NCBI GenBank assembly: GCA_964585685.1 | Contig: CAZPEP010000005.1 | Span: forward strand, 17,783 to 81,782 | Reading direction: 5' to 3' | Length of the DNA stretch: 64,000 nt | Source of the DNA: an uncultured Eubacteriales bacterium | GTDB taxonomy: Bacteria > Acidobacteriota > Aminicenantia > Aminicenantales > Saccharicenantaceae | Shown here: positions 49,193-64,000 of the stretch, in pieces | Layout of the letters: every line of letters begins with the position of its first letter | Numbering within the stretch: position 1 is the stretch's first letter | Notes under the pieces: generated by a model | The model's input: only the letters and a program-made list of their open reading frames with translations | Database searches by the model: none | What the model was told of the DNA's origin: nothing | Position numbers and translations under genes: made by a program

Positions 49193-49255
49193 AACATAGG
49201 TAAACATAGGTAAACATAGGCTTCCCTATCTTCTCCTATGTTCGCCTATGTTTGC
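49193..49255. repeat. iteron-like array: 3 direct AACATAGG(TAA) repeats followed by 2 inverted CCTATGTT repeats
   Basis: aaACATAGGtaaACATAGGtaaACATAGGcttccctatcttctCCTATGTTcgCCTATGTTtgc. It lies right after the replication ATPase gene and before the putative small-terminase-like gene. Candidate origin or packaging site. Confidence 0.5.
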
Positions 49256-49449
49256 ACTTTTATAGGCTCAGAAGATAGCGGGAGGACGGCGACAGGCGCC
49301 TGCCCATTAAGCCTCATCGTCCCCCCAAGAAGCGGGGGCGACCATCTAACTGCCAATCGCATGATTATCAGGCGGGAAGGCTTAAATAATGACCAAAACT
49401 TTGCCATTCCAAGCCTTAGAGAAGCCCGTCAAAAGGAGCCCAAAACCTC

Positions 49450-50079: not shown

Positions 50080-50317
50080 AATAGGCGACCATATACAGGT
50101 GTTGTCCCCCTCGATAGAGCTGGTATCAACGGTGCTCTGGCTTCTCTTGATCGATGAGGACCCCGCGCTGACCATTCAGGGCACGGGCCAGATCCTCAAG
50201 GACTATCTCTCGGGCGCCGGCTTCTTAAAGCTGGCATGGAGGACCTGGCGGCTAAAGCGGGCATTCGGTAAATATGGACGGGCGCTCAAAGAGTTTGCCC
50301 GTGAGTTTGGAGGTTAA
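49976..50317 (+). CDS. hypothetical protein, possibly tail-assembly-chaperone-like (overlaps previous ORF in another frame, directly upstream of tape-measure gene)
   Basis: 113 aa. Position and overlap reminiscent of gpG/gpGT chaperone ORFs preceding tape-measure genes. No sequence motif recognised. Confidence 0.25.
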   Translation: MMKAITIKLDRRRRLRLTPTSIKLAEKTMGKSIVEIGDHIQVLSPSIELVSTVLWLLLIDEDPALTIQGTGQILKDYLSGAGFLKLAWRTWRLKRAFGKYGRALKEFAREFGG

Positions 50318-50318
50318 T

Positions 50319-52637
50319 ATGCCATTCAATGCGGGTAGTCTAGTCGCAACGCTGGAATTAAACACCAAGGGCTGGACGGAGAAGATCCAGGCGGTCCAGA
50401 AGGACAAACAAGCGCTTCTGACCTCCGCCGCCAATATCGGCAAGGGGTTCCAGGACATGGGCCTCAAGATGACGGCAGCCGGCGGCGCGCTCGTCTTGGG
50501 TCTCGGCGCGATGATAAAGAAGACAGCCAACGCCGGGGACGCATTTTGGGACCTGAGCCAGAAGACGGGGATCTCGGTTGAAACGCTGTCCTCGTTCAAG
50601 CTGGCGGCGGATACCTCGGGAACCTCTATCGACGGCTTTGCGGTGGGGATGCGGGGATTGTCCAGGGCCGTCGGCGATGCCAAGACAGGCACGGGTGACG
50701 CAAAGAAAGCGTTCGATGCCCTGGGCGTGTCATTCGTGGATGCTGACGGGAAGGCGCGTCCGCTCGATCAGCTCTTCCTTGATCTCGCCGGGAAGTTCTC
50801 CGGCATGGAGGACGGGGCGACGAAGACCGACCTGGCCATGAAACTGTTCGGGCGGTCCGGGGTGGAGCTCATCCCCATGCTCAACCTCGGAAAGCAGGGG
50901 CTCAAGGACTTGACCGACCGGGCCAAGGAGCTCGGCATCACGTTCAACACCGAGGCCGCGAAGAAATGCGACGAGTTCAATGACAGCCTGGATATTCTCA
51001 GGGCTTCGGTCGGGGCGTCGTTCCGGGGGATCGCGCTGGAGTTGATCCCGACCCTTCAGGACCTTGCTACAAAGGTCGCGTCGGCGATCGGCAAGGTCAT
51101 CGAATGGACCAATGCACATCCCGCCTTGACGGAGGCCATCGGCAAGCTCGCCCTGGGCCTGGCCGGCATCGGGACGATCCTCGCGGTTTCGGGGCCGGTT
51201 CTCATGGGAATCGGGGCGCTGATGACCAACATTGGGGCGATCAAGCTCTTGGCCTTGAAATCCATTGTGTTCACGTTCGCCCTGGCCGGTACGGCGATCG
51301 TCGCGATGGGCGTCGTAAAAATGATTGACGATTTCAAGCGGCTCCGGCTCGAAGGGGAGACGACGGCGGAGGCGCTCAGGACGATGTTCCTGAATTTCAA
51401 TCCGTTCAAGAGCCTCTCCCGTGACAAGATCAGCGAGACGGTCCTGGCGATGGATGAAGCGCGGAGCTCCTCCATCAACCTGACGGGCGCAGTCAGCCTG
51501 CTCGATATCGCGTTTAATGCCATCAAGGGAGCCATCGAGGACGGGGCGGTCAAGCCTGCGAAGACCCTGGCCAGCACCGTCACGGACGTTCTGATCCCCG
51601 CGGTGGACAATGCCAAGCTCGCCCTCGCCAGCATGGTGCAGACGATCGCCCTCGAGGTCACGCCGAAGACCGCGGGGCTTGAGGCGCTCATCAAGGACTT
51701 CACCCCGGCGCTCCAGGGCGTCGATTGGCAGGCACTTCCCGAAGGCGCGAAGCCGGCCCTGGATCAGGTTGGGATTGCCGTCGAGACGATGAGAGAGAGG
51801 ATCGCGGACAATTTCGCGGGATTATTCCTTGATATCAAATCGGGATTCGTCGATACGTTCACCCGTTCCGTCGATGAGGGATGGGGCTTCTCGCGTTTTA
51901 TGGATGAGATATTTAAGACGATCCGGACCTCTCTGATCAGAACGATCGGCGAGATGCTCGCTGACTGGATGTTCGGATTCATCGATAAGATCAAGGCCTC
52001 GGCAACATCTGCCGGGAAGACGATCGCCGAAAGCATCGGAGGCGCGACCGGGGGCATCGGGAAGGCGGCCGGGTCGATGGCCGGCTCCTTCCTTTCGGCG
52101 GCGGGATCTATCGCCAGCATCGTCACCGCCGTCGCCTCGGTCGTCTCCCTGCTCAAGAGCCCTCCCACGGGCGCGGGCGACGGCATGGGCCGCGTCGTCG
52201 AGCGACAGGACCAGCAGACCTCGCTCCTCACGCGCATATTTGAGGACATCAACGGAAATCTCAAGCCGACGCTCTGGTCGATCTCCAGCAAGAGCGATAC
52301 CCAGATCAAGCGTCTGGATACGGCCAACGCCTGGCTCAAGTCGATGGATGCGGCGCTCAAGGGAATGAAGGGCGCGGCAAGCGGGGCCGTCTCGACGCAG
52401 ACAGAAATGATGGTGGTCCACGGCACGCGGAGCGATCCCGAGTACATCATGCGAGCCTCTCAGCTCAACGCGGGCATCATGCCCAAGGCGACCAGCGGCG
52501 GCGGGCGACAGGCGCCCGTCGTCGTCAATATCAAGCCCGTGGTCATTGAAAAACGGGACCGCTATATCATCGAGTTTGTTCAGGACAGCCTGAATCACGG
52601 CACGCTGAGGATCCCCGCCTCGGCGGTAGGCGGGTGA
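50319..52637 (+). CDS. phage tail tape-measure-like protein (TP901-family N-terminal core)
   Basis: Start ATG 50319 preceded by GGAGG RBS. N-terminal region FKLAADTSGTSIDGFAVGMRGLSRAVGDAKTGTGDAKKAFDALGVSF...LAMKLFGRSGVELIPMLNLGKQGLKDLTDRAKELGI matches the conserved TP901-type TMP core. Internal TM helices and Gly/Ala-rich repeats follow. Confidence 0.7.
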   Translation: MPFNAGSLVATLELNTKGWTEKIQAVQKDKQALLTSAANIGKGFQDMGLKMTAAGGALVLGLGAMIKKTANAGDAFWDLSQKTGISVETLSSFKLAADTSGTSIDGFAVGMRGLSRAVGDAKTGTGDAKKAFDALGVSFVDADGKARPLDQLFLDLAGKFSGMEDGATKTDLAMKLFGRSGVELIPMLNLGKQGLKDLTDRAKELGITFNTEAAKKCDEFNDSLDILRASVGASFRGIALELIPTLQDLATKVASAIGKVIEWTNAHPALTEAIGKLALGLAGIGTILAVSGPVLMGIGALMTNIGAIKLLALKSIVFTFALAGTAIVAMGVVKMIDDFKRLRLEGETTAEALRTMFLNFNPFKSLSRDKISETVLAMDEARSSSINLTGAVSLLDIAFNAIKGAIEDGAVKPAKTLASTVTDVLIPAVDNAKLALASMVQTIALEVTPKTAGLEALIKDFTPALQGVDWQALPEGAKPALDQVGIAVETMRERIADNFAGLFLDIKSGFVDTFTRSVDEGWGFSRFMDEIFKTIRTSLIRTIGEMLADWMFGFIDKIKASATSAGKTIAESIGGATGGIGKAAGSMAGSFLSAAGSIASIVTAVASVVSLLKSPPTGAGDGMGRVVERQDQQTSLLTRIFEDINGNLKPTLWSISSKSDTQIKRLDTANAWLKSMDAALKGMKGAASGAVSTQTEMMVVHGTRSDPEYIMRASQLNAGIMPKATSGGGRQAPVVVNIKPVVIEKRDRYIIEFVQDSLNHGTLRIPASAVGG

Positions 52638-52638
52638 C

Positions 52639-54120
52639 ATGGATATAACGGACGCCCTGCACGACAAGACAATCTTCGGGCCGCTGTTCAAGGACCCGAA
52701 GACCTGGCACGCATGGGAGGTCTATCTCCGGGGGCTTTTCGGACTGCCGATCGAGGGCGCCGAGGATCTGGCTCTTTTTAGGGACTGCACCGGGCTCGAG
52801 GCGCCCCCGCGCGAGCGGGCCCGGGAGAGCTATGTCATCGCCGGGAGGCGGAGCGGCAAGAGTTATACATCGGCGCTCATCGCTGCGTTCCTGGCCTGCT
52901 TCAAGGACTGGAAGCCTTATCTGAGTCCGGGGGAGCGCGGCTGGATCTTCGTCATCGCCGTGGACAAGGCCCAGGCCGGGATCATCAAGGCGTACATCTC
53001 GGGCATCTTCCATCGGGTGAAATGCCTGAAGGGCCTGATCGCAAAAGAGACACAAGAGACGATCGAGCTCAAGAACGGGATCTCGATCGCCGTGAAGACG
53101 GCGTCCTTCCGTTCCGTCCGGGGCTATACAATTTTAGCGGCGTTGCTCGAAGAGATCGCATTCGCAAGAAGCGAGGACAGCGCGAACCCCGACAAGGAAA
53201 TTTTAGCGGCCGTCCGCCCGGCGCTGGCGACGATCCCCGACAGCCTGCTCCTCGGCATCAGCACACCCTATAGCCGGAGCGGGGTCCTTTGGGAGCAATT
53301 CAAGAACTACTACGGGAAGCCTGGCGGGCCGCTGATCTGGAAGGCGGCGACGCGGATAATGAACCCGACGATCGACAGCCGGCTCATCGCTAACGCGCTG
53401 AAAGAGGACCCGCAGGCGGCCCGGGCGGAATGGGAGGCCGAATGGCGCGAAGATATCGAAGCGTTCCTTACGCAGGAGCTCGTCGAGGCCGTCACTATCA
53501 CGGGCCGGTTCGAGTTGCCGAGGATTGCCGACGCCGAATACTACGGCTTTATAGACCCGAGCGGCGGCCGGCAAGACTCTTTCACGATGGGGATCTGTCA
53601 CCGGGATAAAACGGGAAAGATCGTCCTGGACGTTCTCCGGGAGCGCCGTCCGCCCTTCCAGCCGCAGGGCGTCGTCGAAGAGTTCTCGGCCGTCCTGAAA
53701 TCGTTCAAGGTCTCGAGCGTCGAGTCTGATAAATACGCCGGCGAATGGGTCCCCGAGGCCTTCAGAAAATACGATATCGAAGTTAAGAACGCCGACATGA
53801 CGGCGAGCGAGCTGTATCTGAATCTTCTCCCGCTTGTCGCGAACGGGACGGTTGAACTTCTGGACAATAAGCGGCTGCTCGCGCAGCTCACAGGGCTTGA
53901 GCGTCGGGTCCGGAGCGGAGGGAAGGACCTTGTTTCCCATTATGCAGGGGGGCATGACGATCTCGCGAACGCCGCGGCCGGAGCCTGCGTCATGGTCGCG
54001 CAGACAGAGGCCGATGGCGGGGGCCTGTTTATTTCGGCCGGGTCCGTCTATGGCGACGACGTTCGGCCGGCGTTTCAACATTCTCCAGGCTGGCGGACGC
54101 TGACCTGGGGAAAGAACTGA
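52639..54120 (+). CDS. phage terminase large-subunit-like protein (ATPase + RNaseH-like nuclease)
   Basis: Walker A AGRRSGKS, acidic Walker B region (IFVIAVDKAQ), C-terminal nuclease-like motifs (FIDPSGG...DSFTMGI..., GGHDDLANA). Confidence 0.6.
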   Translation: MDITDALHDKTIFGPLFKDPKTWHAWEVYLRGLFGLPIEGAEDLALFRDCTGLEAPPRERARESYVIAGRRSGKSYTSALIAAFLACFKDWKPYLSPGERGWIFVIAVDKAQAGIIKAYISGIFHRVKCLKGLIAKETQETIELKNGISIAVKTASFRSVRGYTILAALLEEIAFARSEDSANPDKEILAAVRPALATIPDSLLLGISTPYSRSGVLWEQFKNYYGKPGGPLIWKAATRIMNPTIDSRLIANALKEDPQAARAEWEAEWREDIEAFLTQELVEAVTITGRFELPRIADAEYYGFIDPSGGRQDSFTMGICHRDKTGKIVLDVLRERRPPFQPQGVVEEFSAVLKSFKVSSVESDKYAGEWVPEAFRKYDIEVKNADMTASELYLNLLPLVANGTVELLDNKRLLAQLTGLERRVRSGGKDLVSHYAGGHDDLANAAAGACVMVAQTEADGGGLFISAGSVYGDDVRPAFQHSPGWRTLTWGKN

Positions 54121-54166
54121 TGGGGCAAGCGAGGCCCGGAACTACGCGCTGACGGAGGTTTGCCGA

Positions 54167-54442
54167 ATGGAAGTATTTGCAGGGGGTTTACCGTGGGACG
54201 TAAAGGACGGGGACCTGGAGGGCCTATTCAAGCCCTTCGGGGAGGTCGCGCGGATTAGCGTCGTCCGCGATCCGAGGACGGGAGAGGCGCGCGGCTTCGG
54301 CTTTGTAGAAATGCCGAATGACGGCGAGGCCAGGGCCGCGATCACGGCCTTGAATCAGACGGAGCTTCGCGGAAGGACGCTTCGCGTTTCCGAATCGCTG
54401 AAATCGCGCGGACCATATCCGAATCATGGGAGGACAAATTGA
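54167..54442 (+). CDS. RRM-domain RNA-binding protein
   Basis: 91 aa. RNP-2 (EVFAGGLPW) and RNP-1 (RGFGFVEM) motifs. Gly-poor short C-tail. Confidence 0.7.
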   Translation: MEVFAGGLPWDVKDGDLEGLFKPFGEVARISVVRDPRTGEARGFGFVEMPNDGEARAAITALNQTELRGRTLRVSESLKSRGPYPNHGRTN

Positions 54443-55233
54443 AATACGAACAGACGATCCTTGAAGCGTTTCAGGCTCGCGAAAAAGAGATCAAGGCCGA
54501 GTGCGACAATCTTGATCGCGAAATGGACAAGAAAAGGCGCGACCATGAGAAAATCCAGGCCGACGCCCTGGCGAAGCTCACGGGCGCGCGGGAAGCCCTG
54601 GCCGCTATGAAGGCCGATTATCTCACGCTCGAATCCGGGCTCGCGGCCCAGGCCGAAGGCGAGCTCAGGACAACGGAGGCGACGGCTGAGAAAGTGAAGG
54701 CGGGCGAGGTTTCGCTTCGGAACTTCATGGAGGACGGGCTTTCGGCAAGCGCGATCAAAGCGAAGGCCCAGGCCCAGGCAAACGAAAAGCTCAGGGAGGG
54801 TCGGAGGATCATTCTCGAAAAGGCCCTGGAGATATTCAAGCTCGAAGCCGTGGAAGCCGAGGCGAGGAAAAATATTATTTTCTGCGCGACCTATCCGGGG
54901 CAAACTCAGGTCAAGAAACTCAAGGCCGAAGTCGAAACGCTTGAGCGTAGGATCGGCGAAGTTTTTAGCGGTTATTATTTGGCGACGGCCGATATGGACC
55001 GGGCCAAGCTCAACGTCGCGCTGAGCGAAGGGAAGTCGGTTTCCGGCACGACCTGGGACGCGCTTTCGGTCGATGAGCTTAAGGACTTGAGATTCGATCC
55101 GCGCGTTCAGAAATACGCGGGGGACCTCGAAGCGTTCATCGGCACGGCCGACCCGGCCAAACGGTTCAATGTGTTCCTTCGCGTCGCGGCCTGGGACAAT
55201 ACGCCGGGCTTGGCGATCCTGGCGGCATTATGA
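54439..55233 (+). CDS. coiled-coil hypothetical protein (element-encoded)
   Basis: 264 aa, Ala/Glu/Lys-rich heptad-like N-terminal half. ATGA-type overlap with RRM gene. Confidence 0.35.
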   Translation: MKYEQTILEAFQAREKEIKAECDNLDREMDKKRRDHEKIQADALAKLTGAREALAAMKADYLTLESGLAAQAEGELRTTEATAEKVKAGEVSLRNFMEDGLSASAIKAKAQAQANEKLREGRRIILEKALEIFKLEAVEAEARKNIIFCATYPGQTQVKKLKAEVETLERRIGEVFSGYYLATADMDRAKLNVALSEGKSVSGTTWDALSVDELKDLRFDPRVQKYAGDLEAFIGTADPAKRFNVFLRVAAWDNTPGLAILAAL

Positions 55234-55718
55234 ACAAGCGCACATTCACGGCGAAGGAGATCGCGACACTCTTAACAAGCCAAGCCGGGAGCGATATTGA
55301 ATTGAACCTGGGCAACGGGCTGCGGGCCGTCCGCATGGCGACGAAGGACAGGCCCGTTTTCCAGATCGATCGGGCGGGGAAAGACCTGCATAATCTGGAC
55401 GACGCGGACCCGGCCGAACTCGCGGAGCTATCGGCTATCGTGTGGACCTTCGCGGACCAGTTTGGGCCTACGGAGGACGCCCTGGAGGAGCCCTTGACGC
55501 CGGAGCGGTTTAAAGACAAGCCGGAGCCGGAGAACATCGAGCCGGACCCGTTAGGGCTCACGCCGGACCATTTGCGGGGGATCATCGCGGACCCTGGGCT
55601 CGCGCGAAGGCTCGCGGCAGGAACAGCAACGGCCGAAGATTTGATTGTGCCGGACGCGCTCAAGGACGAGCCCGACGACAGCGATCCATTGGCCTATCCG
55701 GGGGACGCCTCTATTTGA
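55230..55718 (+). CDS. hypothetical acidic protein (element-encoded)
   Basis: 162 aa, overlaps previous gene by 4 bp. Confidence 0.3.
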   Translation: MNKRTFTAKEIATLLTSQAGSDIELNLGNGLRAVRMATKDRPVFQIDRAGKDLHNLDDADPAELAELSAIVWTFADQFGPTEDALEEPLTPERFKDKPEPENIEPDPLGLTPDHLRGIIADPGLARRLAAGTATAEDLIVPDALKDEPDDSDPLAYPGDASI

Positions 55719-55959
55719 CGCGCTTGGATTCGAGCCAGGCCTCAACGTCGGCCTTCTTGAACAAGACATGGCGCTTCAGTTTGAAGTACGGAATGGGGCT
55801 ATCCGGGTCGTTCATCCGCCGGAGCAAGGAGCCCCTAGAGATTTTTAGATATTCCTGAACCTGCTCCCTGGTAAGGGTCTCGTCTGAGAAGCTCGTCTTT
55901 TCGGACATTTTGACTGACTTCATCGACACAAGGATAAGTTCCCTGGCCTTAAAAGTCAA
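55711..55959 (-). CDS. AlpA/excisionase-like helix-turn-helix DNA-binding protein
   Basis: 82 aa. LTREQVQEYLKISRGSLLRRMNDPDSPIPYFKL...VLFKKADVEAWLESK resembles AlpA/Xis-family HTH. Lies beside the integrase region. Confidence 0.55.
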   Translation of the reverse strand: MTFKARELILVSMKSVKMSEKTSFSDETLTREQVQEYLKISRGSLLRRMNDPDSPIPYFKLKRHVLFKKADVEAWLESKRVK

Positions 55960-56001
55960 GGAGCAACAAAATGCTTGACTTTCGTTTAACTAGACCCCAT
56001 T

Positions 56002-56412
56002 ATGTTTAAGGACGGTCCAAATGGCCGTTACTTAATCAAGGAGGGCTTAATGGCAAAGACAAATGGAAAGGGGCCGGGGGAGAACCGCGACGCATGGGAA
56101 GGGGTGGCCCGCGTTGAATGGCTCAAGGGGTTTCCTTTCGTCGGCGAACCCGACGCACAATTCGAGGCAAGGGCTGGGATTGTCCCTGCCGCGGGCATCC
56201 AGGGCTCGAGCCTTTTGCTGGCGCTGAACTTCTCAAAGAACGAGACAACCGAAGGCGTCAACCTCACCTTGTCATTCGACCAGGCGAAGGTGTTGTCTGA
56301 AATTCTACACAATTTCGTCGCCTCCCGGGAAATGGCACATCAGGCGGTCCGCGGCGCATTCGTCAATCCCGAGGGCGCCGTGCGTTGGGGAACCTATCCT
56401 CGGGCGCTTTGA
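56002..56412 (+). CDS. hypothetical protein (element-encoded)
   Basis: 136-aa ORF between excisionase-like and integrase genes. Alternative start MAKTNGKG. Confidence 0.3.
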   Translation: MFKDGPNGRYLIKEGLMAKTNGKGPGENRDAWEGVARVEWLKGFPFVGEPDAQFEARAGIVPAAGIQGSSLLLALNFSKNETTEGVNLTLSFDQAKVLSEILHNFVASREMAHQAVRGAFVNPEGAVRWGTYPRAL

Positions 56413-56490
56413 TCTTCTTTCAGAGGCCGGGGCTTCGGTCCCGGCCCGAGTTAAGAGGATCAACCGAATCCTCAAAAGGAAAACGGAAGA

Positions 56491-57564
56491 ATGAAGATTT
56501 ACAAGAACGAAAAAGGCAAGTGGTGCTATCGTTTCATGGCCAACGGCCAGCAGGCCCGTAAAGTCGTCGGCCTCTCGAAGCAGGAATGCGAGGCTGCGGC
56601 CTGCGCGGCCCGGGACAAGATCAAACGCAGCGGCTTCGGGCTCAAGGGAACGCCCAAGAATCTCTTTTTTGAGGACTTCGCGAAGGAATACCTGGACCGC
56701 TATTCCAGGGTGTACAAACGGTCCTGGAGAAGCGACGAGACCTCCTGCAAGCACCTGGCCGAGTTCTTTAAGGGCAAGTACCTTTCGGCAATCACCCGGA
56801 GCCTCGTCGAACACTACCAGGCCAAGCGCAAGGATGAGGTCGCGCCGGCTACGGTGAACCTCGAGATCGCCTGCCTGAAGAAGATGCTGAGCAAGGCCGT
56901 GGATTGGGATTACCTCGATTCTAATGTTGCCGCCAGGGTCAAAAAGTTCAAGCTGAACAATGCCCGGGAGAGGGTCCTTGACGCCGACGAGGCCCGGCGC
57001 CTGATCGAATGCGCGGCGCCTGCGCTCCAGCCGGTTCTCATCATAGCCCTAAAGACGGGAATGCGGCGGGGCGAGATCCTGAGCCTGAAGTGGTCGGACG
57101 TGAATTTCATCAAGGCCTTCATCCAGATCAAGGACACGAAGAGCGGAGAGCCCCGCAAGGTTCCCCTGAGCCCCGCTGCCCGGGAAGCCCTGAAGGCCCT
57201 CCCGCGAACCTCCGATTTCATCTTCTACAACGCCGAGACGAAAACGCACGTCAAGAGCGTCGTGACGGCGTTCGATACGGCCTGCACCAGGGCCGAGATC
57301 AAGGGGCTCCGCTTCCACGACCTCCGGCATACGTTCGCGACCTGGTACATGGAGAGGGGCGGCGACGTTGTGGCCCTGTCCAAGATCCTCGGGCATCATT
57401 CGCTTCAGATGACGCTCCGGTACTGCAATCCGACAGAGGGCGCGATGCTCCAGGCAGTTGAGAAGATGGACGCGATCTTGGGAAAACCCGAGGCCGAAAC
57501 CGGCAAAAATTTGGTCATCGAGAAGCCCGAAGCTGTCGTAACTGCGCCATTATTAAGCAATTAG
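56491..57564 (+). CDS. tyrosine-type site-specific recombinase / phage integrase
   Basis: 357 aa. Catalytic-domain motifs R (TGMRRGEIL), HDLRHTF, LGHHSLQMTLRY (H-x-x-R...Y). N-terminal SAM-like domain. The gene ends 14 bp before the att copy. Confidence 0.85.
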   Translation: MKIYKNEKGKWCYRFMANGQQARKVVGLSKQECEAAACAARDKIKRSGFGLKGTPKNLFFEDFAKEYLDRYSRVYKRSWRSDETSCKHLAEFFKGKYLSAITRSLVEHYQAKRKDEVAPATVNLEIACLKKMLSKAVDWDYLDSNVAARVKKFKLNNARERVLDADEARRLIECAAPALQPVLIIALKTGMRRGEILSLKWSDVNFIKAFIQIKDTKSGEPRKVPLSPAAREALKALPRTSDFIFYNAETKTHVKSVVTAFDTACTRAEIKGLRFHDLRHTFATWYMERGGDVVALSKILGHHSLQMTLRYCNPTEGAMLQAVEKMDAILGKPEAETGKNLVIEKPEAVVTAPLLSN

Positions 57565-57577
57565 ACATGAGGCCCTT

Positions 57578-57627
57578 GCGATTCGTAATCAGCAGGTCGG
57601 AGGTTCGATCCCTCTCGCTGGCTCCAT
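57578..57627 (+). repeat. att copy 1: direct repeat of tRNA-Thr 3' 48 nt with encoded CCA
   Basis: GATTCGTAATCAGCAGGTCGGAGGTTCGATCCCTCTCGCTGGCTCCA is identical to tRNA positions 28-72. It is followed by TCAAAACTCCCCATATGAAGCGCCAGAATCA, related to sequence after the tRNA gene and after copy 3. Confidence 0.7.
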
Positions 57628-57730
57628 CAAAACTCCCCATATGAAGCGCCAGAATCAGAGACTTAGACCTCTAGCCGGAGGTCTGCCCGTCTTGCCTGCG
57701 CTTGCCCCATAAAACAAGGAATTAGCCCCT

Positions 57731-57811
57731 AATGTGGCACAAATGTGGCACAAGCGTGGAACACGCCAATAATAACCTTTGAATAGGCGTTCCGGACTCC
57801 GGATTCAAAGG
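57731..57811. repeat. three tandem 11-bp direct repeats (AATGTGGCACA x2, AGCGTGGAACA) plus 36-bp palindrome CCTTTGAATAGG...CCGGATTCAAAGG; arm-site-like / regulatory
   Basis: Direct repeats at 57731-57765. Palindrome 57776-57811 with perfect 9-bp arms. Upstream of kinase gene and adjacent to a tRNA-like fragment. Confidence 0.35.
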
Positions 57812-57840
57812 TCGAAGGCTCGAATCCTCTCAGGCGCGCC
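57807..57840 (+). other. tRNA-Arg-like 3' fragment (variable loop, T-arm, acceptor 3' strand), second copy
   Basis: AAAGGTCGAAGGCTCGAATCCTCTCAGGCGCGCC aligns with AAAGGTCGGAGGTTCGAATCCTTTCAGGCACGCC of the 6167..6237 remnant (about 6 differences over 34 nt). Confidence 0.3.
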
Positions 57841-57902
57841 CCGTTTGACTTCCCGCCTATCCCTCTGTTAATCTGAGTCCAAGTTAGAGGAGGGGACCAA
57901 AC

Positions 57903-60900
57903 GTGGCCAACAAGTGCCCAACCTGTCATTCCGACAATCCCGATACCAAGCAGTTCTGCGCCGATTGCGGCACCCAGCTGCCTCTGCCCCAAGGCCATCC
58001 TCCGGTCCTGACGGAAACCCTTCAAACCCTTGTCCATGAACTCACCACCGGCTCCACCTTCGCCAATCGTTACCAGGTCATCGAGGAGCTAGGCCATGGC
58101 GGCATGGGCAGGGTCTATAAGGTCTTCGACAGCGACATCAAGGAGAAGATCGCCCTCAAGCTTCTCAGGCCCGAGATCGCCCTGGACCGGGAGACCGTCG
58201 AGCGCTTCTCGAACGAGCTGAAGCTTGCCCGGAAGATCAGCCACCGCAACGTCTGTCGGATGTTCGACCTGGGCAAGGCCGAGGGCACGACCTTCATCAC
58301 TATGGAGTTCGTGCCGGGCGAGGACTTGAAGAAGTTCATCCGGAAGTCCGGCCAGCTTGGGGCCGGCCGGGCCGTGTCAATCGCCAAGCAGGTCTGCGAA
58401 GGATTGACGGAGGCCCATCATCTGGGTGTCGTCCACCGTGACCTTAAGCCCCAGAACATCATGGTCGACGAGGACGGCAACGCTCGGATCATGGACTTCG
58501 GGATTGCCCGGTCGCTCTACGGCAAAAGCATAACAGGTGCCGGGGTGATGATCGGGACGCCGGAGTACATGTCACCGGAGCAGGTCGAGGGGAAGGAGGT
58601 TGACCAGCGCTCGGATATCTATTCGCTGGGGATCATCCTCTTCGAGATGGTCACGGGTCATGTGCCCTTCGAGGGCGACACGCCGTTCACGATCGGCGTC
58701 AAGCACAAAAGCGAGCGGCCGCGGGACCCCAGGGAGCTGAATCCGCAAATCCCTCAGGACCTCGGCCGGCTCGTCCTCAAATGTCTGGAGAAAGACGGCG
58801 CCAAGCGCTACCAGAGCGCGGGGGAGCTCCGTACGGACCTGGAGAAAATCGAACAGGCTATGCCGACGACCGAGCGCGTCGTTTCGAAGCGGAAGCCTCT
58901 CACCTCCAGGGAGATCACCGTTAAGTTCAACTTGAGAAAGCTCGCCGTCCCTTTATCAGCCGTCATCGTGCTGGCCGCAGCGGCCGTCATTCTTTGGAAA
59001 GTCATCCCTCACCGAAAGGCGCCCGCCGCGCCCAAGATCGAGAACTCCATCGCCGTCATCAGCTTCGTGAATCAGACCGGAGATAAGGACTTCGATTATT
59101 TGCAAAAGGCCATTCCCGACCTTCTGATCACCAGCCTGGAACGGCGAGGCGAGCTCTACGTGGCCACCTGGGAGCGGATGCTGGACCTTCTCGATCAGAT
59201 GGGGAAAAAGAATGTCGAAGTCATCGACAGGGAACTCGGTTTCGATCTGTGCCGGAGGGAGGGGATCGAAACGATTGTCATCGGGAGCTACATCAAGGCC
59301 GGGGAGACCTTCGCCACGGATGTAAAGGTCCTGGATGTGGGGACCAAGAGAATTCTCAAGAGCTGCACTTCAAGGGGAGAGGGGGCTTCGAGCATAATCA
59401 ACCGGCAGATCGATGAATTGACCAGGGAGATCTTTGAGGGCATCGGTCTGGCGAAGAAAGGCTCGGGTACTTCAGAGGTGCGCATAGCGGATGTCACGAC
59501 CAGCTCGATGGAAGCGTATAAATATTATCTGGAAGGGAGCGAGAATTTTCGAAAGCTATATTTCAATGAAGCCAGAATTGCTTTCGAAAAAGCCGTTGGG
59601 CTGGATCCGGATTTTGCAATGGCTTATGCTGCTCTTGCTAGCGCACACGGTGCGCTACAAAATATCGAAGCGAGATATACAGCTACAAAGAGGGCTAAAG
59701 CTCTGATGCATAAGGCAACTGAAAAGGAGAAAGCATCTATTGAGATATCTTATGCAGGGATAATAGAGAAGGATCGTGAGAAAGTCTCCCGGTTGCTCCA
59801 GCAAAGGGCAGAAAGATATCCCAGGGAAAAGGCAATAATTAATAATGTGGGGATAGATTATTACGAAACCGGAGCCTATGACCAAGCGATAAAAGCGTTT
59901 AACCAAGTGCTGGAACTGGATCCCAACTATGAGCCGGCACACAATATGCTGGGCTATACATATTTCAAGATGGGGGAATTTTCTAAGGCGGTTGAGCATC
60001 TCAAAAAATCTGCTTCTTTGCTCCCGGGCGAAGCCAATCCGCTCGATTCTCTGGGTGAGGCCTATTTTTGGATGGGCCGGCTGGATGAGTCCGCAGCGAC
60101 CTACAAACAAGCTCTAGAGATTAAAGCGGATTTCGAATCGGCCATTTTTGTCGTCGGGTATATTCATGCTTTGAAGGAAGAGTATGCTGAAGGCTTGAAA
60201 TGGTTTGACAAGTTCATTGCCGCGACTCCTCCCGGGATCAGAAGGGAGGGTTATCTTTTCAAAGGGTTTTACCGCTACTGGCTGGGGAGTTTGAAGGACT
60301 GCGATGGTGCTCTTCGTGAAGCCGAGAAATTATCGGAACCCGGTTATGTTTGGGGTGTGCCGTTTATCAACTGGCTGAAGGCGTTCATTCATTATGACCG
60401 GGGCGAGTTCGAGCAAAGCCGAAGGTATAACGAAAACTGGCTGGACGATTTTATCAAACAACATCCGGACAGAAAATATTACTATCAGGGAGCATATTCC
60501 TTCCTGTCCGGCTTATTGGAAATGAAGGCCGGACGTCGGGATTCAGCCGAGAAGATATTGGCTGAGATGAGATCACATTACAAAGATATGCCGCCCTACC
60601 GGAAAGACTGGGTGGCCTTCTATATCAAATTCCTCAGCGCCGAGCTGTCTCTTGCCGCTGGATCCCCCGAAAAAGCTATTGCTGTTTTTGAAGAACAAAC
60701 ACCCTTTCGCCCGGAAGGAATCTGGTATTATTCTTCAATGATTTTGTATAACCTGCCCATTAAAAAGGACGTTTTGCCCCGTGCCTATGAGCAGAAGGGG
60801 GATATCGATAGGGCCATCGCCGAATACGAGCGGCTGATCACATTCGATCCGGGGAACCCAAGCCGACAGCTCATCCACCCGGAATACCATTACAGGTTGG

Positions 60901-61043
60901 CCAAATTATATGAGCGGAAAGGCTTGAAGGCGAAAGCGGTCGAGCAATACAAGCGCTTCCTCGACCTCTGGAAGGACGCCGAGCCCGGCCTGCCCGAGGT
61001 TGCGGATGTGAATAAGCGGCTGGTTGGGCTGATTGGCAATTGA
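57903..61043 (+). CDS. transmembrane Ser/Thr protein kinase with N-terminal zinc ribbon and C-terminal TPR-repeat domain
   Basis: 1046 aa. [19 protein letters not shown] zinc ribbon. Kinase motifs ([24 protein letters not shown]). One TM helix ([17 protein letters not shown]). About 600 aa of TPR-like repeats. Confidence 0.8.
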
Positions 61044-61070
61044 TCGACACTTCGGGGCAGCCCCGAAGGT

Positions 61071-61197
61071 GAGCACAATCTGAGCACAACCGATTTTGTG
61101 TCCTACTTATATATCTTTATTATCAATAATATAAAACGCTAGGGCAGTTGGTTCGTAATCAGCAGGTCGGAGGTTCGATCCCTCTCGCTGGCTCCAT
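61071..61197 (+). repeat. conserved junction (GAGCACAATCTGAGCACAAYCGATTTTG...TTATTATCA) fused to att copy 2 (tRNA-Thr 3' 48 nt + CCA)
   Basis: Shares ~125 bp at ~85% identity with 63315..63440. The att part TTGGTTCGTAATCAGCAGGTCGGAGGTTCGATCCCTCTCGCTGGCTCCA lies at 61148-61197. Preceded by hairpin CTTCGGGGCAGCCCCGAAG after the kinase stop. Confidence 0.7.
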
Positions 61198-61382
61198 CCA
61201 TATTCCCTGAGAAAGCGGCTGGGAAATCAACGTCCCCAGGACTCGAAATATGCCGCGATTTGACACAACTCGTACCCGTTTTAAGTTTTAAAAGAACACC
61301 ATTAAACACAATCTGGGCGGGGACGAATCGGTTCGAGCTATACAAAATTGCTTTCGCGGTCTGGATATGTCAGTTCAAATCT

Positions 61383-63107
61383 TTATCTGTTACCGCGCCA
61401 GAGGTCATTCATCGAACCAAACAAGGAAACTTCCGAATCAAGGCCATATCCTCCGAAGAGCCACAGATGGCCCTCTGGATCGATCCAGGACACGGCATAT
61501 TGTTTTGGCCAAGGGCAGTTTGAGGGATCGGCTACGCCCTTGGTTCCGTAAACGCCCGGCTGATTTAAGGAATCGGTGCCGGATACCCAGGCCCATTCCA
61601 GGGTTGCCGGGTCAAACTTCCACAGGTCATTGAAGAGATTTGCCGCAGGCCCCCAACTCCCCGCAAACACTCCCCCCCCGAAGAGCCAGAGTTGATTGTG
61701 GGCATCTATCCAGGACACAGCGCCCAGTCTCCCCCCTGGGACGTTCGATGGATCGGCCAGGCCCTTTGATCCGTATACGCCTGGCTGGTCAGCAATATTG
61801 CTGCCGGATACCCAGGTCCATTCAACGGTTACCGGGTCGAATTTCCAAAGGTCGTTGAGATACCCCGAATCGTTCGCTGAAACAATGCCAACTCCTCCGA
61901 AGAGCCAGAGGTTGCCTTGGGAATCGAACCAGGATACAGCCCCCTCCCTAGCCCCAGGGCAGTTCGATGGATCGGCCAGACCCTTTGTGCCGTATACTCC
62001 TGGCTGTTCTTGCGAGTCTCCGCCGGATACCCAGGTCCATTCAACGGTTACCGGGTCGAATTTCCAGAGGTCGTTGAGATACCCCCAATCGTTCGCTGAA
62101 ACAATGCCCCGGCCTCCGAAGAGCCAGAGGTTGCCTTGGGAATCGAACCAGGATACAGCCAGCTCCCTAGCCCCAGGGCAGTTCGAGGGATCGGCCACGC
62201 CCTTGGTTCCGTAAACGCCCGGCTGATCTCGAGTATCGCTCCCGGATATCCATGTCCAATTCTGGGTTGCCGGGGCATATTTCCAAAGGTCGTTGTAGTA
62301 GTAACCCGTATAGGTCCAATCGTAGACATATCCTCCGAAGAGCCAGAGGTTGCCTTGGGAATCGAGCCAGGATACAGCCCTCTCCCTAGCCCCAGGGATG
62401 TTTGAGGGAGAGGGAACACCCTTAGTGCCGTAGGTCCCAGCTTGAGAGATGGTATCGCTGCCGGAAATCCAGGTCCATTCGAGAGAGATCGGTTCGACGA
62501 TGGTCGCGGTCGCAGAACCGGACATGGTGGTGTCCTCGACCGACGTGGCCGTGATCAAGACTGTGGGCGCGGCGGGCACGACGGTCGGTGCCGTATACAG
62601 GCCCGTGTTCGAGATGGTGCCGCACTCGGATCCCGTGCAGCTCGAACCCGAAACGGTCCAGGTCACGCTATTATCGACGGCGTTCTGGAGGGTGGCGGTG
62701 AACTGTTTTGTCCCGCCGGCCGCGACGAGGGAATCGGAAGGGGAGACCGTAACCACGACGGCCGCCAGAATGGTGATCGTGGCGCTGGCCGACTTGGAGG
62801 TATCGGCCGCGGAGGTGGCTCTGACCGTTATTGTCGCGGGGCTGGGAACGCTCCCTGGGGCCGTGTAAAGTCCGTCGCTACTGATCATACCGCACGCGGC
62901 GCCGCTGCACCCGGTGCCGGACAGATTCCAGGTCACCGCGGTATTTGCCGAGTTGCGCACGTTCGCCCAAAACCGCATCGATCTGGCAACGTGAACGTTC
63001 GCTGAGCCAGGCGTCAAAGTAACGCTGATCGCGGCGGAATCCTCGCCAGAGCTGCAGCCCCAGACGATAAAAAGCAAGCCCGCGAGAAGAATGCGTGCTT
63101 TAGACAT
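61383..63107 (-). CDS. lipoprotein with two Ig-like (BIG) domains and six Kelch-type beta-propeller repeats
   Basis: Start at MSKARILLAGLLFIVWGC (lipobox-like). Two ~90-aa Ig-like segments with CxGxxCG motifs. Six repeats of ...NDLWKFDP...W.WVSG...QPGVYGTKG..DP.N.PGAR..AVSW.D..GNLWLFGG. Confidence 0.65.
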   Translation of the reverse strand: MSKARILLAGLLFIVWGCSSGEDSAAISVTLTPGSANVHVARSMRFWANVRNSANTAVTWNLSGTGCSGAACGMISSDGLYTAPGSVPSPATITVRATSAADTSKSASATITILAAVVVTVSPSDSLVAAGGTKQFTATLQNAVDNSVTWTVSGSSCTGSECGTISNTGLYTAPTVVPAAPTVLITATSVEDTTMSGSATATIVEPISLEWTWISGSDTISQAGTYGTKGVPSPSNIPGARERAVSWLDSQGNLWLFGGYVYDWTYTGYYYNDLWKYAPATQNWTWISGSDTRDQPGVYGTKGVADPSNCPGARELAVSWFDSQGNLWLFGGRGIVSANDWGYLNDLWKFDPVTVEWTWVSGGDSQEQPGVYGTKGLADPSNCPGAREGAVSWFDSQGNLWLFGGVGIVSANDSGYLNDLWKFDPVTVEWTWVSGSNIADQPGVYGSKGLADPSNVPGGRLGAVSWIDAHNQLWLFGGGVFAGSWGPAANLFNDLWKFDPATLEWAWVSGTDSLNQPGVYGTKGVADPSNCPWPKQYAVSWIDPEGHLWLFGGYGLDSEVSLFGSMNDLWRGNR

Positions 63108-63314
63108 GTCGACCTCCTGATCCGCTTTATTTATGGCCATTCATGGGAAAAGTTGCACTAATTCCATGATGGCCGCCCCGGAATTTCCGCGTTCTTGGCA
63201 TCGGAGTCTCCCTCCTTAGTGACAACAATATAGTTTGGCCGGGCTGGGGAGCTGTCAAGAAGTTGTCAATAAAGTTAAAAAGTTTGGTCAAGACAACATG
63301 GCAGCACCGCAGGC

Positions 63315-63440
63315 GAGCACAATCTGAGCACAATCGATTTTGCCTACCCGCTAAGCACGTTTATTATCAGTAACGTGTAACACTAGGCAAGTTGGTTCGT
63401 AATCAGCAGGTCGGAGGTTCGATCCCTCTCGCTGGCTCCA
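63315..63440 (+). repeat. conserved junction fused to att copy 3 (tRNA-Thr 3' 48 nt + CCA)
   Basis: GAGCACAATCTGAGCACAATCGATTTTG...TTATTATCAGTAACG...CTAGGCAAGTTGGTTCGTAATCAGCAGGTCGGAGGTTCGATCCCTCTCGCTGGCTCCA. Followed by TAGAATTCCCCCATATGTGGCTACAGATTCAATCATTTAGG, related to sequence after the tRNA gene (46166-46210). Confidence 0.7.
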
Positions 63441-63697
63441 TAGAATTCCCCCATATGTGGCTACAGATTCAATCATTTAGGGGAGATCCAGCGCTGATAG
63501 GGTTTTCAGTCCTTTTAAGCAGGTTTAAGCTCTTTTTAGCGTTCAACACGACAAAAAGTCGACAGTAGCCTTTAGCACCGCGCGATCACCGGCACCAAAA
63601 AGGGTCTCTCCTAATGGACCAGCACTTGGTGCTCGGAATTCGGAATAAGGATACTGAAGGGAATCCTGCGGACGCGAGTGCTAGAGACCTGGGCGCC

Positions 63698-64000
63698 TTA
63701 CCACTCTCGATATTTCCAATCCTGCATAAGCTTACTAATCTTCCCGAAGGTAAGCTGTAGAACAAAGCCGTGCGATACAGGCGCTGCATAAACCAGGTTG
63801 CCTATTGGAATAGCCACCGCCCCAGATTCTTCGCTTGACCACGAAGCAATGAAGATTTCTTCGCCCTGAGTGACAGAAGTCGGCTGGCCAAATTTTATGA
63901 GGGCCTCATCATATGTCAATTGTCCCATTAGACCATGCATGGTCGAGGAAAATTGTTCCATTCTAGTATTGGTTGTCGCACAACCAATGCAGGATATCAC
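63698..64000 (-). CDS. hypothetical protein (partial, runs off window end), lower-GC DNA
   Basis: 100-aa open frame to window edge, ~48% GC by eye. First gene of a further cassette downstream of att copy 3. Confidence 0.25.
   Translation of the reverse strand: MISCIGCATTNTRMEQFSSTMHGLMGQLTYDEALIKFGQPTSVTQGEEIFIASWSSEESGAVAIPIGNLVYAAPVSHGFVLQLTFGKISKLMQDWKYREW

Follow-up and report, generated by a model that had tools for sequence, protein, structure and literature searches.

Organization of the tRNA-Thr(CGT) locus

The window (the whole stretch of 64,000 nucleotides analyzed here) contains an intact tRNA-Thr(CGT) gene that anchors a tandem array, consisting of a phage-like integrative element (element 1), two short cassettes (cassettes 2 and 3) and the start of a further element or cassette. 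A 43-mer (TTCGTAATCAGC...GCTGGCTC), which covers the tRNA from its anticodon loop to its 3′ end, is present without mismatches at positions 46124, 57582, 61152, and 63396 (none expected in shuffled sequences). The features are as follows:

46093–46166, +, intact tRNA-Thr(CGT), array anchor (ARAGORN; Rfam tRNA, 70.5 bits), anticodon loop from 46124
46167–57581, +, element 1, phage-like integrative element of 11.4 kb, tRNA-proximal (Pfam; genes with their Pfam domains tabulated for the identical locus L024)
46278–46296, +, arm-type-like site GGCAAAAATTTGGTCATCG of element 1 (P′ arm), 154 nt past the anticodon-loop start (exact 19-mer with two copies in the window, against a chance expectation of none)
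47663–49168, AAA_25 helicase of element 1
50274–52637, tape-measure-like protein of element 1
52639–54120, terminase-like protein of element 1
~55711–55908, −, HTH_17 Xis-like protein of element 1
56491–57564, tyrosine integrase of element 1
57502–57520, +, P-arm copy of the 19-mer GGCAAAAATTTGGTCATCG, 80 nt ahead of the loop, within the 3′ end of the integrase gene, where it encodes GKNLVIE
57582–57624, +, att copy 2, exact 43-mer, left limit of cassette 2
61152–61194, +, att copy 3, exact 43-mer, boundary between cassettes 2 and 3
63396–63438, +, att copy 4, exact 43-mer, right limit of cassette 3
63439–64000, +, start of a further element or cassette, P′-type arm similar to the left end of element 1 (repeat family D7; alignment)

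Cassettes 2 and 3 are each bounded on both sides by the exact 43-nt tRNA 3′ copies, in an attL/attR-like arrangement. The cassettes of the original prediction are therefore real, but the limits it gave (57628–61197 and 61198–63440) are shifted: as identity with the tRNA starts at the anticodon loop, their natural limits are 57582–61151 and 61152–63395. For the tRNA-Thr of the window, the identity block begins with the anticodon loop, which the stem flanks as an inverted repeat, and the same was found for tRNA-Arg(ACG) in L027 and for tRNA-Pro(CGG) in L126 and L032.

The only tyrosine-recombinase box in the window is that of the element-1 integrase, which scores 57 bits against the integron-integrase model (cut-off 265); the gene between smc and the tRNA-Thr is not a recombinase. 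Because a further element begins at 63439, the array continues beyond the window. In this last part, ACACGACAAAAAGTCGACAG (63546–63565) is the sequence that encodes TRQKVD in the tails of many related integrases.

Cargo of the two cassettes

The cargo is as originally predicted, with a Zn-ribbon/Ser-Thr kinase/TPR gene in cassette 2 and a Big_2/Kelch lipoprotein gene in cassette 3. The Pfam domains in both are those of the cargo only. Cassette 2 comprises:

57734–57764, +, P′-arm direct repeats GTGGCACAA, GTGGCACAA, and GTGGAACAC with an 11-nt period (GCACAA repeat from 155 nt past the loop)
57794–57840, +, tRNA-Arg(CCG)-type 3′ fragment from its anticodon loop, upstream of the kinase gene (matches the intact tRNA-Arg(CCG) in L118 and L144)
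57845–57874, +, conserved, promoter-like leader of kinase cassettes, TTGACTTCCCGCC...GTTAATCT (array-junction alignment)
57903–61043, +, 1046-aa Zn-ribbon/Hanks-type Ser-Thr kinase/transmembrane/TPR protein (Pfam, NCBIfam)
61050–61068, GC hairpin
61052–61151, +, junction (P arm) with GC hairpin, j19, AT-rich stretch and degenerate tRNA 5′ half
61071–61089, +, j19, the GAGCACAA direct repeat, 81 nt ahead of the loop

Within the kinase ORF, Pfam identified Zn_ribbon, Pkinase (E-value 9e-58), and TPR domains, and paralogs with 23–68% amino-acid identity occur in other cassettes. The tRNA-Arg(CCG) fragment is also found upstream of kinase genes in other arrays and represents a relic of a second att specificity. 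In the junction alignment, the kinase leader directly abuts a tRNA 3′ end in other arrays.

Cassette 3 comprises:

61294–61315, +, degenerate j19-like repeat GAACACCATTAAACACAATCTG in the P′ arm, ~142 nt past the loop
61383–63107, −, 574-aa lipoprotein with Big_2 and Kelch repeats (Pfam; signal peptide; DNA repeats D1 and D2)
63296–63395, +, junction (P arm), with j19 at 63315–63333

The lipoprotein has a lipoprotein-type signal peptide (MSKARILLAGLLFIVWGC), and its Kelch blades are encoded by five DNA repeats of 219–225 nt each (61435–62517). An exact-protein look-up of the kinase and of the lipoprotein (with two start choices for the latter) returned no identical protein on record.

It had also been proposed that the kinase and the Kelch protein may form a joint accessory module, for example for phage defense or surface variation. 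This is not supported, because the two genes lie in separate cassettes that assort independently; they are unlinked in other arrays, and in a sister strain the kinase cassette has a different neighbor. A role in defense was rejected: PADLOC matched the kinase (PD-T4-6, mad6) within the generic kinase domain only (residues 45–385), gave no match for the Kelch protein, and found no whole-protein or gene-pair match to a known system.

Anatomy of the shared junction

The right junctions of the two cassettes (61071–61197 and 63315–63441) are identical at 109 of 127 positions in a gapless alignment, so that the shared junction first noticed at this locus is real; a longer alignment (61052–61197 and 63296–63441) has 122 of 146 identical positions. 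The P arm is ~95–113 nt long and consists of the GC hairpin, two copies of GAGCACAA spaced 11 nt apart, an AT-rich stretch and a degenerate tRNA 5′ half, and together with the tRNA 3′ half the whole junction measures ~140 nt. In the entire 64 kb, GAGCACAA occurs only four times, as two tandem pairs, one inside each junction.

The spacing of these parts is strikingly regular. Among the matches listed, j19 starts 80–81 nt ahead of the loop in 105 of 108 junction copies, and WATCARNNNNTTR is present at −31 in 73 of 108. About two thirds fit the IHF consensus, and in the two junctions of the window the TTR part of this consensus is missing. Based on the consensus match, a site of IHF type is predicted at WATCARNNNNTTR, which lies between core and arm site, and the region of TATCAGTAAGTTG is a candidate for IHF/HU binding. 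Column conservation in 105 junction copies (among the matches listed) is 80–99% from the hairpin to the end of the tRNA and then drops to 30–70%.

The arrangement resembles that of element 1. The latter has its own exact 19-mer in both arms, at −80 and +154, and the cassettes have GCACAA-N5-GCACAA at −79, in cassette 2 also at +155, such that its P′ repeat geometry agrees with the P′ site of element 1. At the position of the degenerate P′ repeat of cassette 3, L029, L031, L103, and L127 have an exact j19. Overall, a clean repeat with an 11-nt period is found at +110 to +190 in the P′ arms of 13 of the 130 cores among the matches listed.

Most kinase genes have the junction behind their stop codon, and with its initial GC hairpin and a T-arm at the end that can fold, it has features that might be expected of a functional RNA or a regulatory 3′ element (for instance a terminator, a promoter of the next gene or an mRNA end resembling a tRNA) that was duplicated together with the genes. 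However, it equally follows a gene on the opposite strand (cassette 3), and the pseudo 5′ half is unable to pair with the acceptor strand. Rfam matched nothing in the junction besides the true tRNA, alifold on 100 unique junctions yielded only weak invariant pairing (−5.7 kcal/mol) with zero covariation, and no compensatory changes were present around the AT-rich stretch in the unique junctions compared. No conserved structure emerged from these checks, and we regard an RNA or regulatory origin of the junction as very improbable.

A family of integrase-less cassettes in Aminicenantes

A search of genome contigs with the junction 19-mer (j19) returned 22 stretches, nearly all from Aminicenantes MAGs and including a contiguous 40-kb array with 10 cores, and a search of metagenomes yielded at least 120 further stretches. 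The resulting census comprises at least 78 contigs of Aminicenantes type with at least 149 cores, at least 15 intact tRNAs and at least 109 fragments with a junction, most of the contigs possibly being short-read metagenome assemblies in which chimeras may arise at repeats. Arrays reach ten or more cassettes, and one array lies on a contig whose name suggests a long-read assembly. The possibility that the junction is found only in the window can be discarded, given more than 100 further copies elsewhere.

Among the matches listed, 69 cassettes are complete (bounded), with sizes of 0.76–11.5 kb and a median of 3.1 kb. A single ORF of at least 150 aa is present in 40 of these, kinase paralogs in 26, and an integrase in just one, which is element 1; ORFs of at least 150 aa are co-oriented in 85 of 111 cases (among the matches listed). 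The cargo is mutually unrelated and includes amidohydrolases, peptidases, an outer-membrane protein, ATPases, and kinases. Cassettes 2 and 3 belong, as first proposed, to one family of minimal, att-flanked elements that lack an integrase. In the literature, such arrays in Aminicenantes are not described and the junction motif is not reported, and the family behind tRNA-Thr is apparently large and hitherto undescribed.

Could these be dead remnants of separate prophage or island integrations, each of which lost its integrase by an individual deletion, with no mobility or function as a unit today? It is common for integrations to lie in tandem among scattered partial tRNAs and decayed elements (bioRxiv 10.1101/2020.12.28.424599; PMC5704250), the P′ arms are often degenerate, and fragments of a second tRNA, tRNA-Arg(CCG), occur in the arrays in 49 copies among the matches listed. 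Yet independent deletions would not yield the same left edge of the junction beside unrelated cargo (105 copies), and the uniformity of this edge argues against independent decay. In addition, the tRNA-derived core is free of mismatches in 78 of 128 fragments (among the matches listed) though it lies outside any working tRNA, and cassettes that are 90–99% identical sit beside different neighbors. We therefore consider ordinary decay improbable.

Variation between strains and location of breakpoints

Cassettes vary between strains, as opposed to being conserved in synteny, the outcome that would have counted against the original prediction. Four genomes that have smc-tRNA-Thr in common carry different arrays, and in strain L024 element 1 is 99.6% identical to that of the window, after which the cassettes differ. 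The point at which the window and L024 switch is at 58952, inside the conserved kinase domain. Among the matches listed, no pairs that differ by presence or absence (insertion or deletion) of a single cassette were found, and no contigs of the census had terminal repeats suggestive of a circle.

In left-same pairs (n = 14), identity is lost right after j19, whereas in right-same pairs (n = 3) the breakpoint is at the core, and the 62-nt stretch that separates j19 from the loop follows neither neighbor but assorts on its own. A single crossover at the loop does not account for this loss of identity and independent behavior, which point instead to either homologous recombination or a second point of exchange.

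These observations bring forward an explanation by homologous recombination only, according to which the junction is an old att relic that now provides no more than portable homology, in its GAGCACAA block and its tRNA core, for duplication, deletion, and swapping of a RecA type, with no integrase acting at present. The breakpoints indeed lie in the two longest identical blocks, and the independent assortment of the stretch between them, the switch inside the kinase domain and chimeric Thr/Arg cores that are joined inside a common AGGTCGGAGGTTCGA stretch all agree with it, as does the finding that none of the tRNA-Thr arrays among the matches listed has an integrase with a GAGCACAA-type arm. 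Homology alone, however, cannot place unrelated genes between repeats, and the fixed arm geometry is the same as that of the integrase-bearing element. Conservation of the junction also far exceeds that of flanking non-coding DNA. Junction identity is 0.76 within arrays and 0.76 between arrays, which excludes concerted evolution by within-array gene conversion and leaves no sign of the homogenization within arrays that recombination would bring. Finally, crossovers favoring the longest block (the 46-nt core) should retain the 62-nt stretch, but it is retained in none of the 14 left-same pairs. On balance, recombination as the sole process seems unlikely to us, though it deserves serious attention.

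Candidate integrases and proposed mechanism

The original prediction held that the cassettes probably depend on the neighboring element-1 integrase or on a chromosomal one. Core and arm geometry of element 1 and the cassettes are alike, but as the arm motifs differ (GGCAAAAATTTGGTCATCG versus GCACAA-N5-GCACAA) reliance on the element-1 integrase is doubtful; the cognate enzyme is probably a different integrase of the same broad group. In the P′ arm, j19 is carried by phage-like relatives of element 1. In the integrase-bearing elements of L126, L032, and L041, j19 is located at the stop codon of the integrase gene, ~40–60 nt ahead of the 3′ half of a different tRNA that likewise begins at the anticodon loop, and arm motifs are embedded in integrase-gene tails. 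Among the 120 closest integrase relatives, no tail encoding the j19 motif (EHNLSTI or STI*) was found. We also considered whether TTATTATCAGCAAGTTGA is a relic of an integrase C-terminus (LLS.N*), an idea weakened by L097, in which the same block lies ~100 nt beyond the end of the integrase match. A viral collection contained no match to the tRNA-Thr core and no free attP, only one distant relative of the element-1 integrase, and five viral stretches with the j19 motif, with no tRNA nearby.

Anatomy, family, spread, variability and breakpoints of the cassettes are established, and from these we infer the action of an integrase in trans and the exact point of crossover. In the reading that we favor, and hold to be fairly probable, cassettes 2 and 3 are non-autonomous, CIME-like cassettes that behave much like those of integrons, mobilized by a tyrosine integrase in trans and reshuffled by homologous recombination, in a hypervariable array downstream of tRNA-Thr(CGT). 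The cassette unit runs from one anticodon loop to the next, with the exact tRNA 3′ copy first and the conserved P arm last. Given that they have the arm geometry of element 1, the cassettes would be miniature derivatives of that element family that lost the integrase and phage genes. The arm-binding domain of the integrase supplied in trans would recognize the GCACAA repeats, and strand exchange in or beside the 7-nt anticodon loop would lead to insertion, excision, and stacking of cassettes at the tRNA. Further reshuffling would occur by homologous recombination between copies of the GAGCACAA block, the tRNA core and the paralogous kinase domains.

A bolder extension, which we put forward tentatively, is that the ~140-nt unit could be a self-sufficient one-sided recombination site, through which an unlinked tyrosine integrase captures, stacks, and reshuffles single-gene cassettes at tRNA-Thr, on a tRNA-anchored, integron-like platform in Aminicenantes. 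By analogy, such a site might then play a role comparable to that of the integron attC or of cer/psi, with accessory sequence on one side. The same platform could, just as speculatively, have multiplied and diversified the sensor kinases of ~1000 aa. It may also use two exchange points, one behind the GAGCACAA repeats and one at the anticodon loop, and these would account for the 62-nt stretch that assorts independently.

Relation to known systems

The arrangement is close to that of a lambda-type attP, for which Landy's model reportedly has direct-repeat arm protein-binding sites at fixed distances; integration into tRNA genes at the anticodon loop is said to have been described by Williams in 2002. 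Likenesses that can be read from the DNA are the P-arm repeats at fixed distances, the putative IHF-like site between arm and core, and the identity block starting from a 7-nt loop with the stem as inverted repeat. In contrast to attP, only the P arm is conserved in the Aminicenantes cassettes, and their arm sites are putative ones.

With integrons and CALINs the cassettes have in common that they are mostly single-gene and integrase-less, that only the 3′ recombination site is conserved, that ORFs are co-oriented and that content varies between strains. They differ in that the junction is not a folded imperfect palindrome and no attC was identified (no Rfam match; among 100 unique junctions, neither covariation nor a hairpin that is conserved), and in that the arrays lack a linked intI, attI, and Pc and have a tRNA gene as their anchor. 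At the site it is the sequence that is conserved, with the look of a lambda-type P arm joined to a tRNA half, and a cassette can bring its own promoter.

Islands at the ssrA gene of Dehalococcoides are said to carry their own recombinase. Several of these islands are integrated in tandem at this one small-RNA gene, each ending in a 3′-end repeat and with adaptive cargo (PMC3146451); what they have in common is a short direct repeat, whereas the Aminicenantes cassettes have the 140-nt junction.

Also close are the CIMEs of the ICESt1/ICESt3 family in streptococci, which are described as flanked by attL and attR and devoid of integration and transfer genes (Pavlovic 2004; Bellanger 2011, in PMC5704250). 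An element with an integrase stands in tandem with them where the target gene has its 3′ end, and they are thought to be mobile through a related integrase acting on the outer sites. They are described as having arisen individually by decay of ICEs or IMEs, as a rule with one or two at a site (PMC5704250). The Aminicenantes cassettes, too, are att-flanked, have Pfam domains of cargo only and are in tandem with the integrase-bearing element 1. Bearing on an origin by CIME-type decay are the arm geometry that they have in common with element 1 and the position of j19 at the integrase stop codon in other elements and, on the opposing side, the uniform edge of the junction. Compared with the CIMEs of that account, they number more than 100 with one uniform ~140-nt site, are mostly single-gene and form arrays of ten or more, and their parent is a small phage-like element and not a conjugative one.

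In the tycheposons of Prochlorococcus, tyrosine recombinases integrate at tRNA genes and later arrivals push older elements inward, leaving islands with scattered partial tRNAs and remnants and with adaptive cargo; what defines a tycheposon is an integrase of its own together with hallmark genes, and a genome has one or two of them (bioRxiv 10.1101/2020.12.28.424599). The Aminicenantes arrays are also sited at a tRNA, with partial tRNAs and flexible cargo, but their cassettes have no mobility, replication or packaging genes, have a dedicated common junction, and occur in another host phylum.

Movement of the cassettes in trans, if it occurs, would mean that a way to build integron-like arrays evolved independently a second time, with a phage-type integrase, a tRNA as dock and an arm-plus-tRNA-half tag. 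It would also explain how an uncultured, widespread sediment phylum gains secreted hydrolases, outer-membrane proteins, and large sensor kinases and diversifies them.

Beyond these arrays, the GAGCACAA repeat with its 11-nt period also adjoins integrase genes and tRNA halves and is present in viral contigs of unrelated taxa. Possibly a widespread, uncharacterized DNA-binding domain recognizes it as its binding site. For surveys, GAGCACAATCTGAGCACAA followed by 62 nt and then TTCGTAATCAGC provides a sequence handle with which the flexible gene pool of Aminicenantes can be followed in metagenomes.

Two Cassettes Behind tRNA-Thr(CGT)

The terminal 43 nt of the tRNA-Thr gene, which open with the complete anticodon loop (TTCGTAA), recur as perfect repeats at positions 57582, 61152 and 63396, where none would be expected by chance in the window. 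Since identity with the tRNA begins at the anticodon loop, the natural limits of the two cassettes are 57582–61151 (cassette 2) and 61152–63395 (cassette 3). One large gene lies in each of these two inter-att stretches, and the tRNA and the first att copy enclose an 11.4-kb phage-like element (element 1). The features are:

46093–46166, tRNA-Thr(CGT), the anchor tRNA
56491–57564, tyrosine integrase of element 1, the sole tyrosine recombinase in the window
57903–61043, forward strand, cassette 2 gene, 1046-aa Zn-ribbon/Ser-Thr kinase/TPR protein
61383–63107, reverse strand, cassette 3 gene, 574-aa Big_2/Kelch lipoprotein

The cassettes share an end block (61071–61197 and 63315–63441) that is identical at 109 of 127 positions without gaps, and GAGCACAA occurs only four times in the 64 kb, as two tandem pairs within these blocks. 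With its att copies, common block and cassettes devoid of a recombinase, the locus bears out the original prediction, which described two integrase-less cassettes with a shared junction and this cargo. The Kelch blades of the lipoprotein are encoded by five tandem DNA repeats of 219–225 nt (61435–62517) that are 63–89% alike.

The Junction Tags a Family of Mostly Single-Gene Cassettes

The 19-mer GAGCACAATCTGAGCACAA of the junction (hereafter j19) was used as query. It matched 22 stretches in species-representative genomes, nearly all of them Aminicenantes metagenome-assembled genomes and several with multiple copies per contig, and a metagenome scan added at least 120 further stretches; the junction is thus not confined to this locus. 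The contig CAWEJF010000015.1 provides a continuous 40 kb (five adjoining 8-kb blocks) with ten tRNA-Thr cores, i.e., copies of the tRNA 3' part, in an array that runs past the contig start; judging from its name (MFD bin, "contig_" label), this contig may stem from a long-read assembly.

Among the matches listed, 149 cores were present on 78 contigs, including 15 intact tRNAs, 109 fragments preceded by a j19 junction and 19 fragments without junction. This recurrence agrees with the proposal that the cassettes belong to one family of minimal elements. Cassettes bounded by two cores numbered 69 among the matches listed, with sizes of 0.76–11.5 kb (median 3.1 kb); 40 of the 69 contain a single ORF (≥150 aa), and ORFs are co-directed with the tRNA in 85 cases and opposed in 26. 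Element 1 is the only one of the 69 bounded cassettes or elements with an integrase; one more integrase is found at the left edge of a related locus (L097).

A paralog of the kinase is carried by 26 of the 69 cassettes (∼40%), and these paralogs are mosaic, with a conserved kinase half and a variable sensor half. Other cargo, sampled with Pfam, is diverse: secreted amidohydrolases, M28 and M14 peptidases, an ankyrin/metallo-beta-lactamase protein, PEMT, a TonB-type outer-membrane protein, an AAA_14/DUF4143 ATPase, a TldD/PmbA pair, a PD40 propeller, a LuxR regulator and an aminotransferase. The suggestion that kinase and Kelch protein form a joint defense or surface module finds no support, as the two genes reside in separate, independently assorting cassettes; against the PADLOC models the kinase matched defense kinases in the generic kinase domain only, and the Kelch lipoprotein had no match.

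The consensus of 105 junction copies reads ...GCAGCGCCGCAGG TGAGCACAATCTGAGCACAATCGATTTTGCGCCCCACCTAATTACCTTTATTATCAGTAAGTTGAAACGCTAGGCCAGTTGG / TTCGTAATCAGC...GGCTCCA, with column conservation of 80–99% as far as the tRNA end and 30–70% directly beyond. The start of j19 lies 80–81 nt upstream of the anticodon loop in 105 of 108 copies. In 73 of 108 copies, TATCAGTAAGTTG at position −31 conforms to the IHF consensus WATCARNNNNTTR; the two copies in the window are without the TTR part. In a by-eye alignment, the final ∼30 nt of the junction resemble the tRNA 5' half (∼17 of 31 positions), and the anticodon-stem strand is CAGTTGG in the junction versus CAGCTGA in the tRNA.

Arrays Vary Between Genomes, With Two Apparent Exchange Hot Spots

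Arrays differ among four genomes with a common smc-tRNA-Thr region, and many cassettes that are 90–99% identical have differing neighbors, which excludes conserved synteny across relatives. For instance, L062 1–4296 and L104 2767–7061 are 99% identical over their full length, CAWEJF010000015.1 22508–31807 and L112 6988–13317 have different neighbors on both sides, and a PD40 cassette is the sole cassette beside the tRNA in L018 and occupies the far end, away from the tRNA, of the array in CAWEJF010000015.1, which has at least ten cassettes.

A locus of a sister strain, from another sample (L024), is 99.6% identical to the window over 46491–58952, a span that takes in element 1 and the initial 1050 nt of the kinase gene; beyond 58952 it is unrelated and has a C-terminal kinase part of its own, a different junction, a cassette for a TPR protein and more genes. 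The kinase gene of L024 is mosaic (switch at window position 58952, L024 position 12462): it shares the Zn ribbon and kinase domain with the window gene, and its sensor/TPR part, beginning with the transmembrane segment, is unrelated. Judging from such sequence comparisons, homologous recombination clearly contributes to array variation, as also shown by this switch.

In pairs sharing only the left cassette (n = 14) identity stops directly after j19, and in pairs sharing only the right cassette (n = 3) it begins at the core, pointing to the j19 block and the core as two exchange hot spots, with the caveat that most compared contigs are possibly short-read assemblies, in which joins at repeats can be chimeric. 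The 62-nt stretch between j19 and loop (window 61090–61151 and 63334–63395) follows neither neighbor (identity 0.80 and 0.79; for reference, unrelated pairs have 0.76 and pairs sharing both neighbors 0.98). Identical stretches occur beside unrelated flanks (e.g., window 61090–61151 and L006, 97%), and junction copies are no more alike within arrays than between them. Two exchange points could account for this independent assortment, as could short-patch recombination or chimeric assembly. None of the examined contigs had terminal repeats that would hint at a circular form, and no pair differing by insertion or deletion of a single cassette was found among the compared contigs. The contigs L025 and L028, of which one comes from Logan and the other from a different run, end inside the tRNA-Thr core beside the integrase gene or precisely at this core, as would be expected were assemblies interrupted here by the repeat or by variation in the population.

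Arm Geometry and the Cognate Integrase

The exact 19-mer GGCAAAAATTTGGTCATCG occurs twice in element 1, at 46278–46296 (P' arm, after the core; 154 nt past the loop start) and at 57502–57520 (P arm, before the core; 80 nt before the loop), the latter in the 3' end of the integrase gene, where it is translated as GKNLVIE in the integrase tail. The corresponding 7-aa tails of related integrases are AKKSAIE, ADISAIG or TRQKVDT, so that the protein tail and the putative binding site seem to change together. In the cassettes, GCACAA-N5-GCACAA is located 79 nt before the loop; it recurs 155 nt after the loop in cassette 2 (three repeats at 57734–57764), and in cassette 3 a copy ∼142 nt past the loop is degenerate. 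Alignment of P arms from related elements with an integrase reveals repeats with an 11-nt period at the equivalent place (e.g., GTCCA twice in L097).

Integrases elsewhere, just 28–32% identical to that of the window, terminate exactly at or within j19, and in three of these loci (L126, L032, L041) a tRNA-Pro(CGG) half, starting from its anticodon loop, follows 40–60 nt beyond j19 or the integrase end. In phage-like relatives of element 1 that have homologous terminase genes, j19 is found in the P' arm (L073), and exact j19 copies lie ∼142 nt after tRNA-Thr cores in L029, L031, L103 and L127. Window positions 63546–63565 (ACACGACAAAAAGTCGACAG) correspond to the sequence encoding TRQKVD in the tails of many integrase relatives, with DNA-level matches in L149 and L151. 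From this shared geometry and the presence of j19 at integrase ends and in P' arms, we read j19 as a putative repeat for arm-type or accessory-protein binding, and the cassettes as probable miniature versions of the element-1 family that kept the arms and lost the integrase.

The element-1 integrase has the same core target and geometry as the cassettes; relatives of this integrase are found at that tRNA-Thr core (L028, 78% identical) and at tRNA-Arg(ACG) (L027). Element 1 and the cassettes differ in arm motif, however, and a j19-encoding tail was absent from all 120 closest relatives of the integrase, which renders the originally proposed dependence on the neighboring integrase doubtful. The more likely helper is an integrase of j19 type, encoded at another place in the genome or by a visiting phage-like element.

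Relation to Known Systems

By definition, the cassettes qualify as CIMEs, being att-flanked and without integration genes (PMC5704250). They behave similarly to integron cassettes and to the tRNA-proximal islands built by tycheposons, but lack attC and IntI of the former and the hallmark genes of the latter. The literature searched contained no account of such arrays or of the motif. What sets them apart is the uniform, sequence-conserved site of arm plus tRNA half that tags more than 100 mostly single-gene cassettes, in arrays of at least ten.

Other tRNAs, Repeats and Elements

We observed 3' fragments of tRNA-Arg(CCG) type that likewise start from the anticodon loop; they lie within tRNA-Thr arrays, in many cases directly before the kinase promoter, and in one case near tRNA-Gln(CTG):

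57794–57840, tRNA-Arg(CCG)-type 3' fragment
6168–6211, reverse strand, tRNA-Arg(CCG)-type 3' fragment
related loci, 49 copies

The fragment at 6168–6211 is situated ∼240 nt downstream of tRNA-Gln(CTG) (6449–6522, reverse strand). The intervening ∼240 nt (6212–6448, reverse strand) resemble the P'-type arm at 63500–63570 (TTTTCGGTCGTTTTAAGCCC...TTTTTTAGTTTTCAACGAGCCAAAAAATAGCC) and may represent an empty cassette or element relic at a third tRNA. Chimeric Thr/Arg cores were present in L072, L128, L134 and CAWEJF010000015.1 (38291).

GAGCACAATTTGAGCACAA is also found in unrelated soil and viral contigs (L099, L147, L058, L108, L153 and others): it borders an IS3-like transposase gene in L147, forms part of small palindromic MITE-like units in L099 and L153, and belongs to operator- or iteron-like clusters of GAGCACAA/AAGCACAA repeats in L152 and L154. 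Directly after the AAA_25 helicase gene in element 1, three tandem AAACATAGGT units stand opposite an inverted set (CCTATCTTCTCCTATGTTCGCCTATGTTT) at 49192–49253, an iteron-like candidate replication origin. DarTG-type toxin-antitoxin systems are a known phage defense, and a related integrase-bearing element at tRNA-Arg(TCG) (L151 4201–11160) contains a DarT/Macro gene of this type, indicating that autonomous family members can bear defense cargo.
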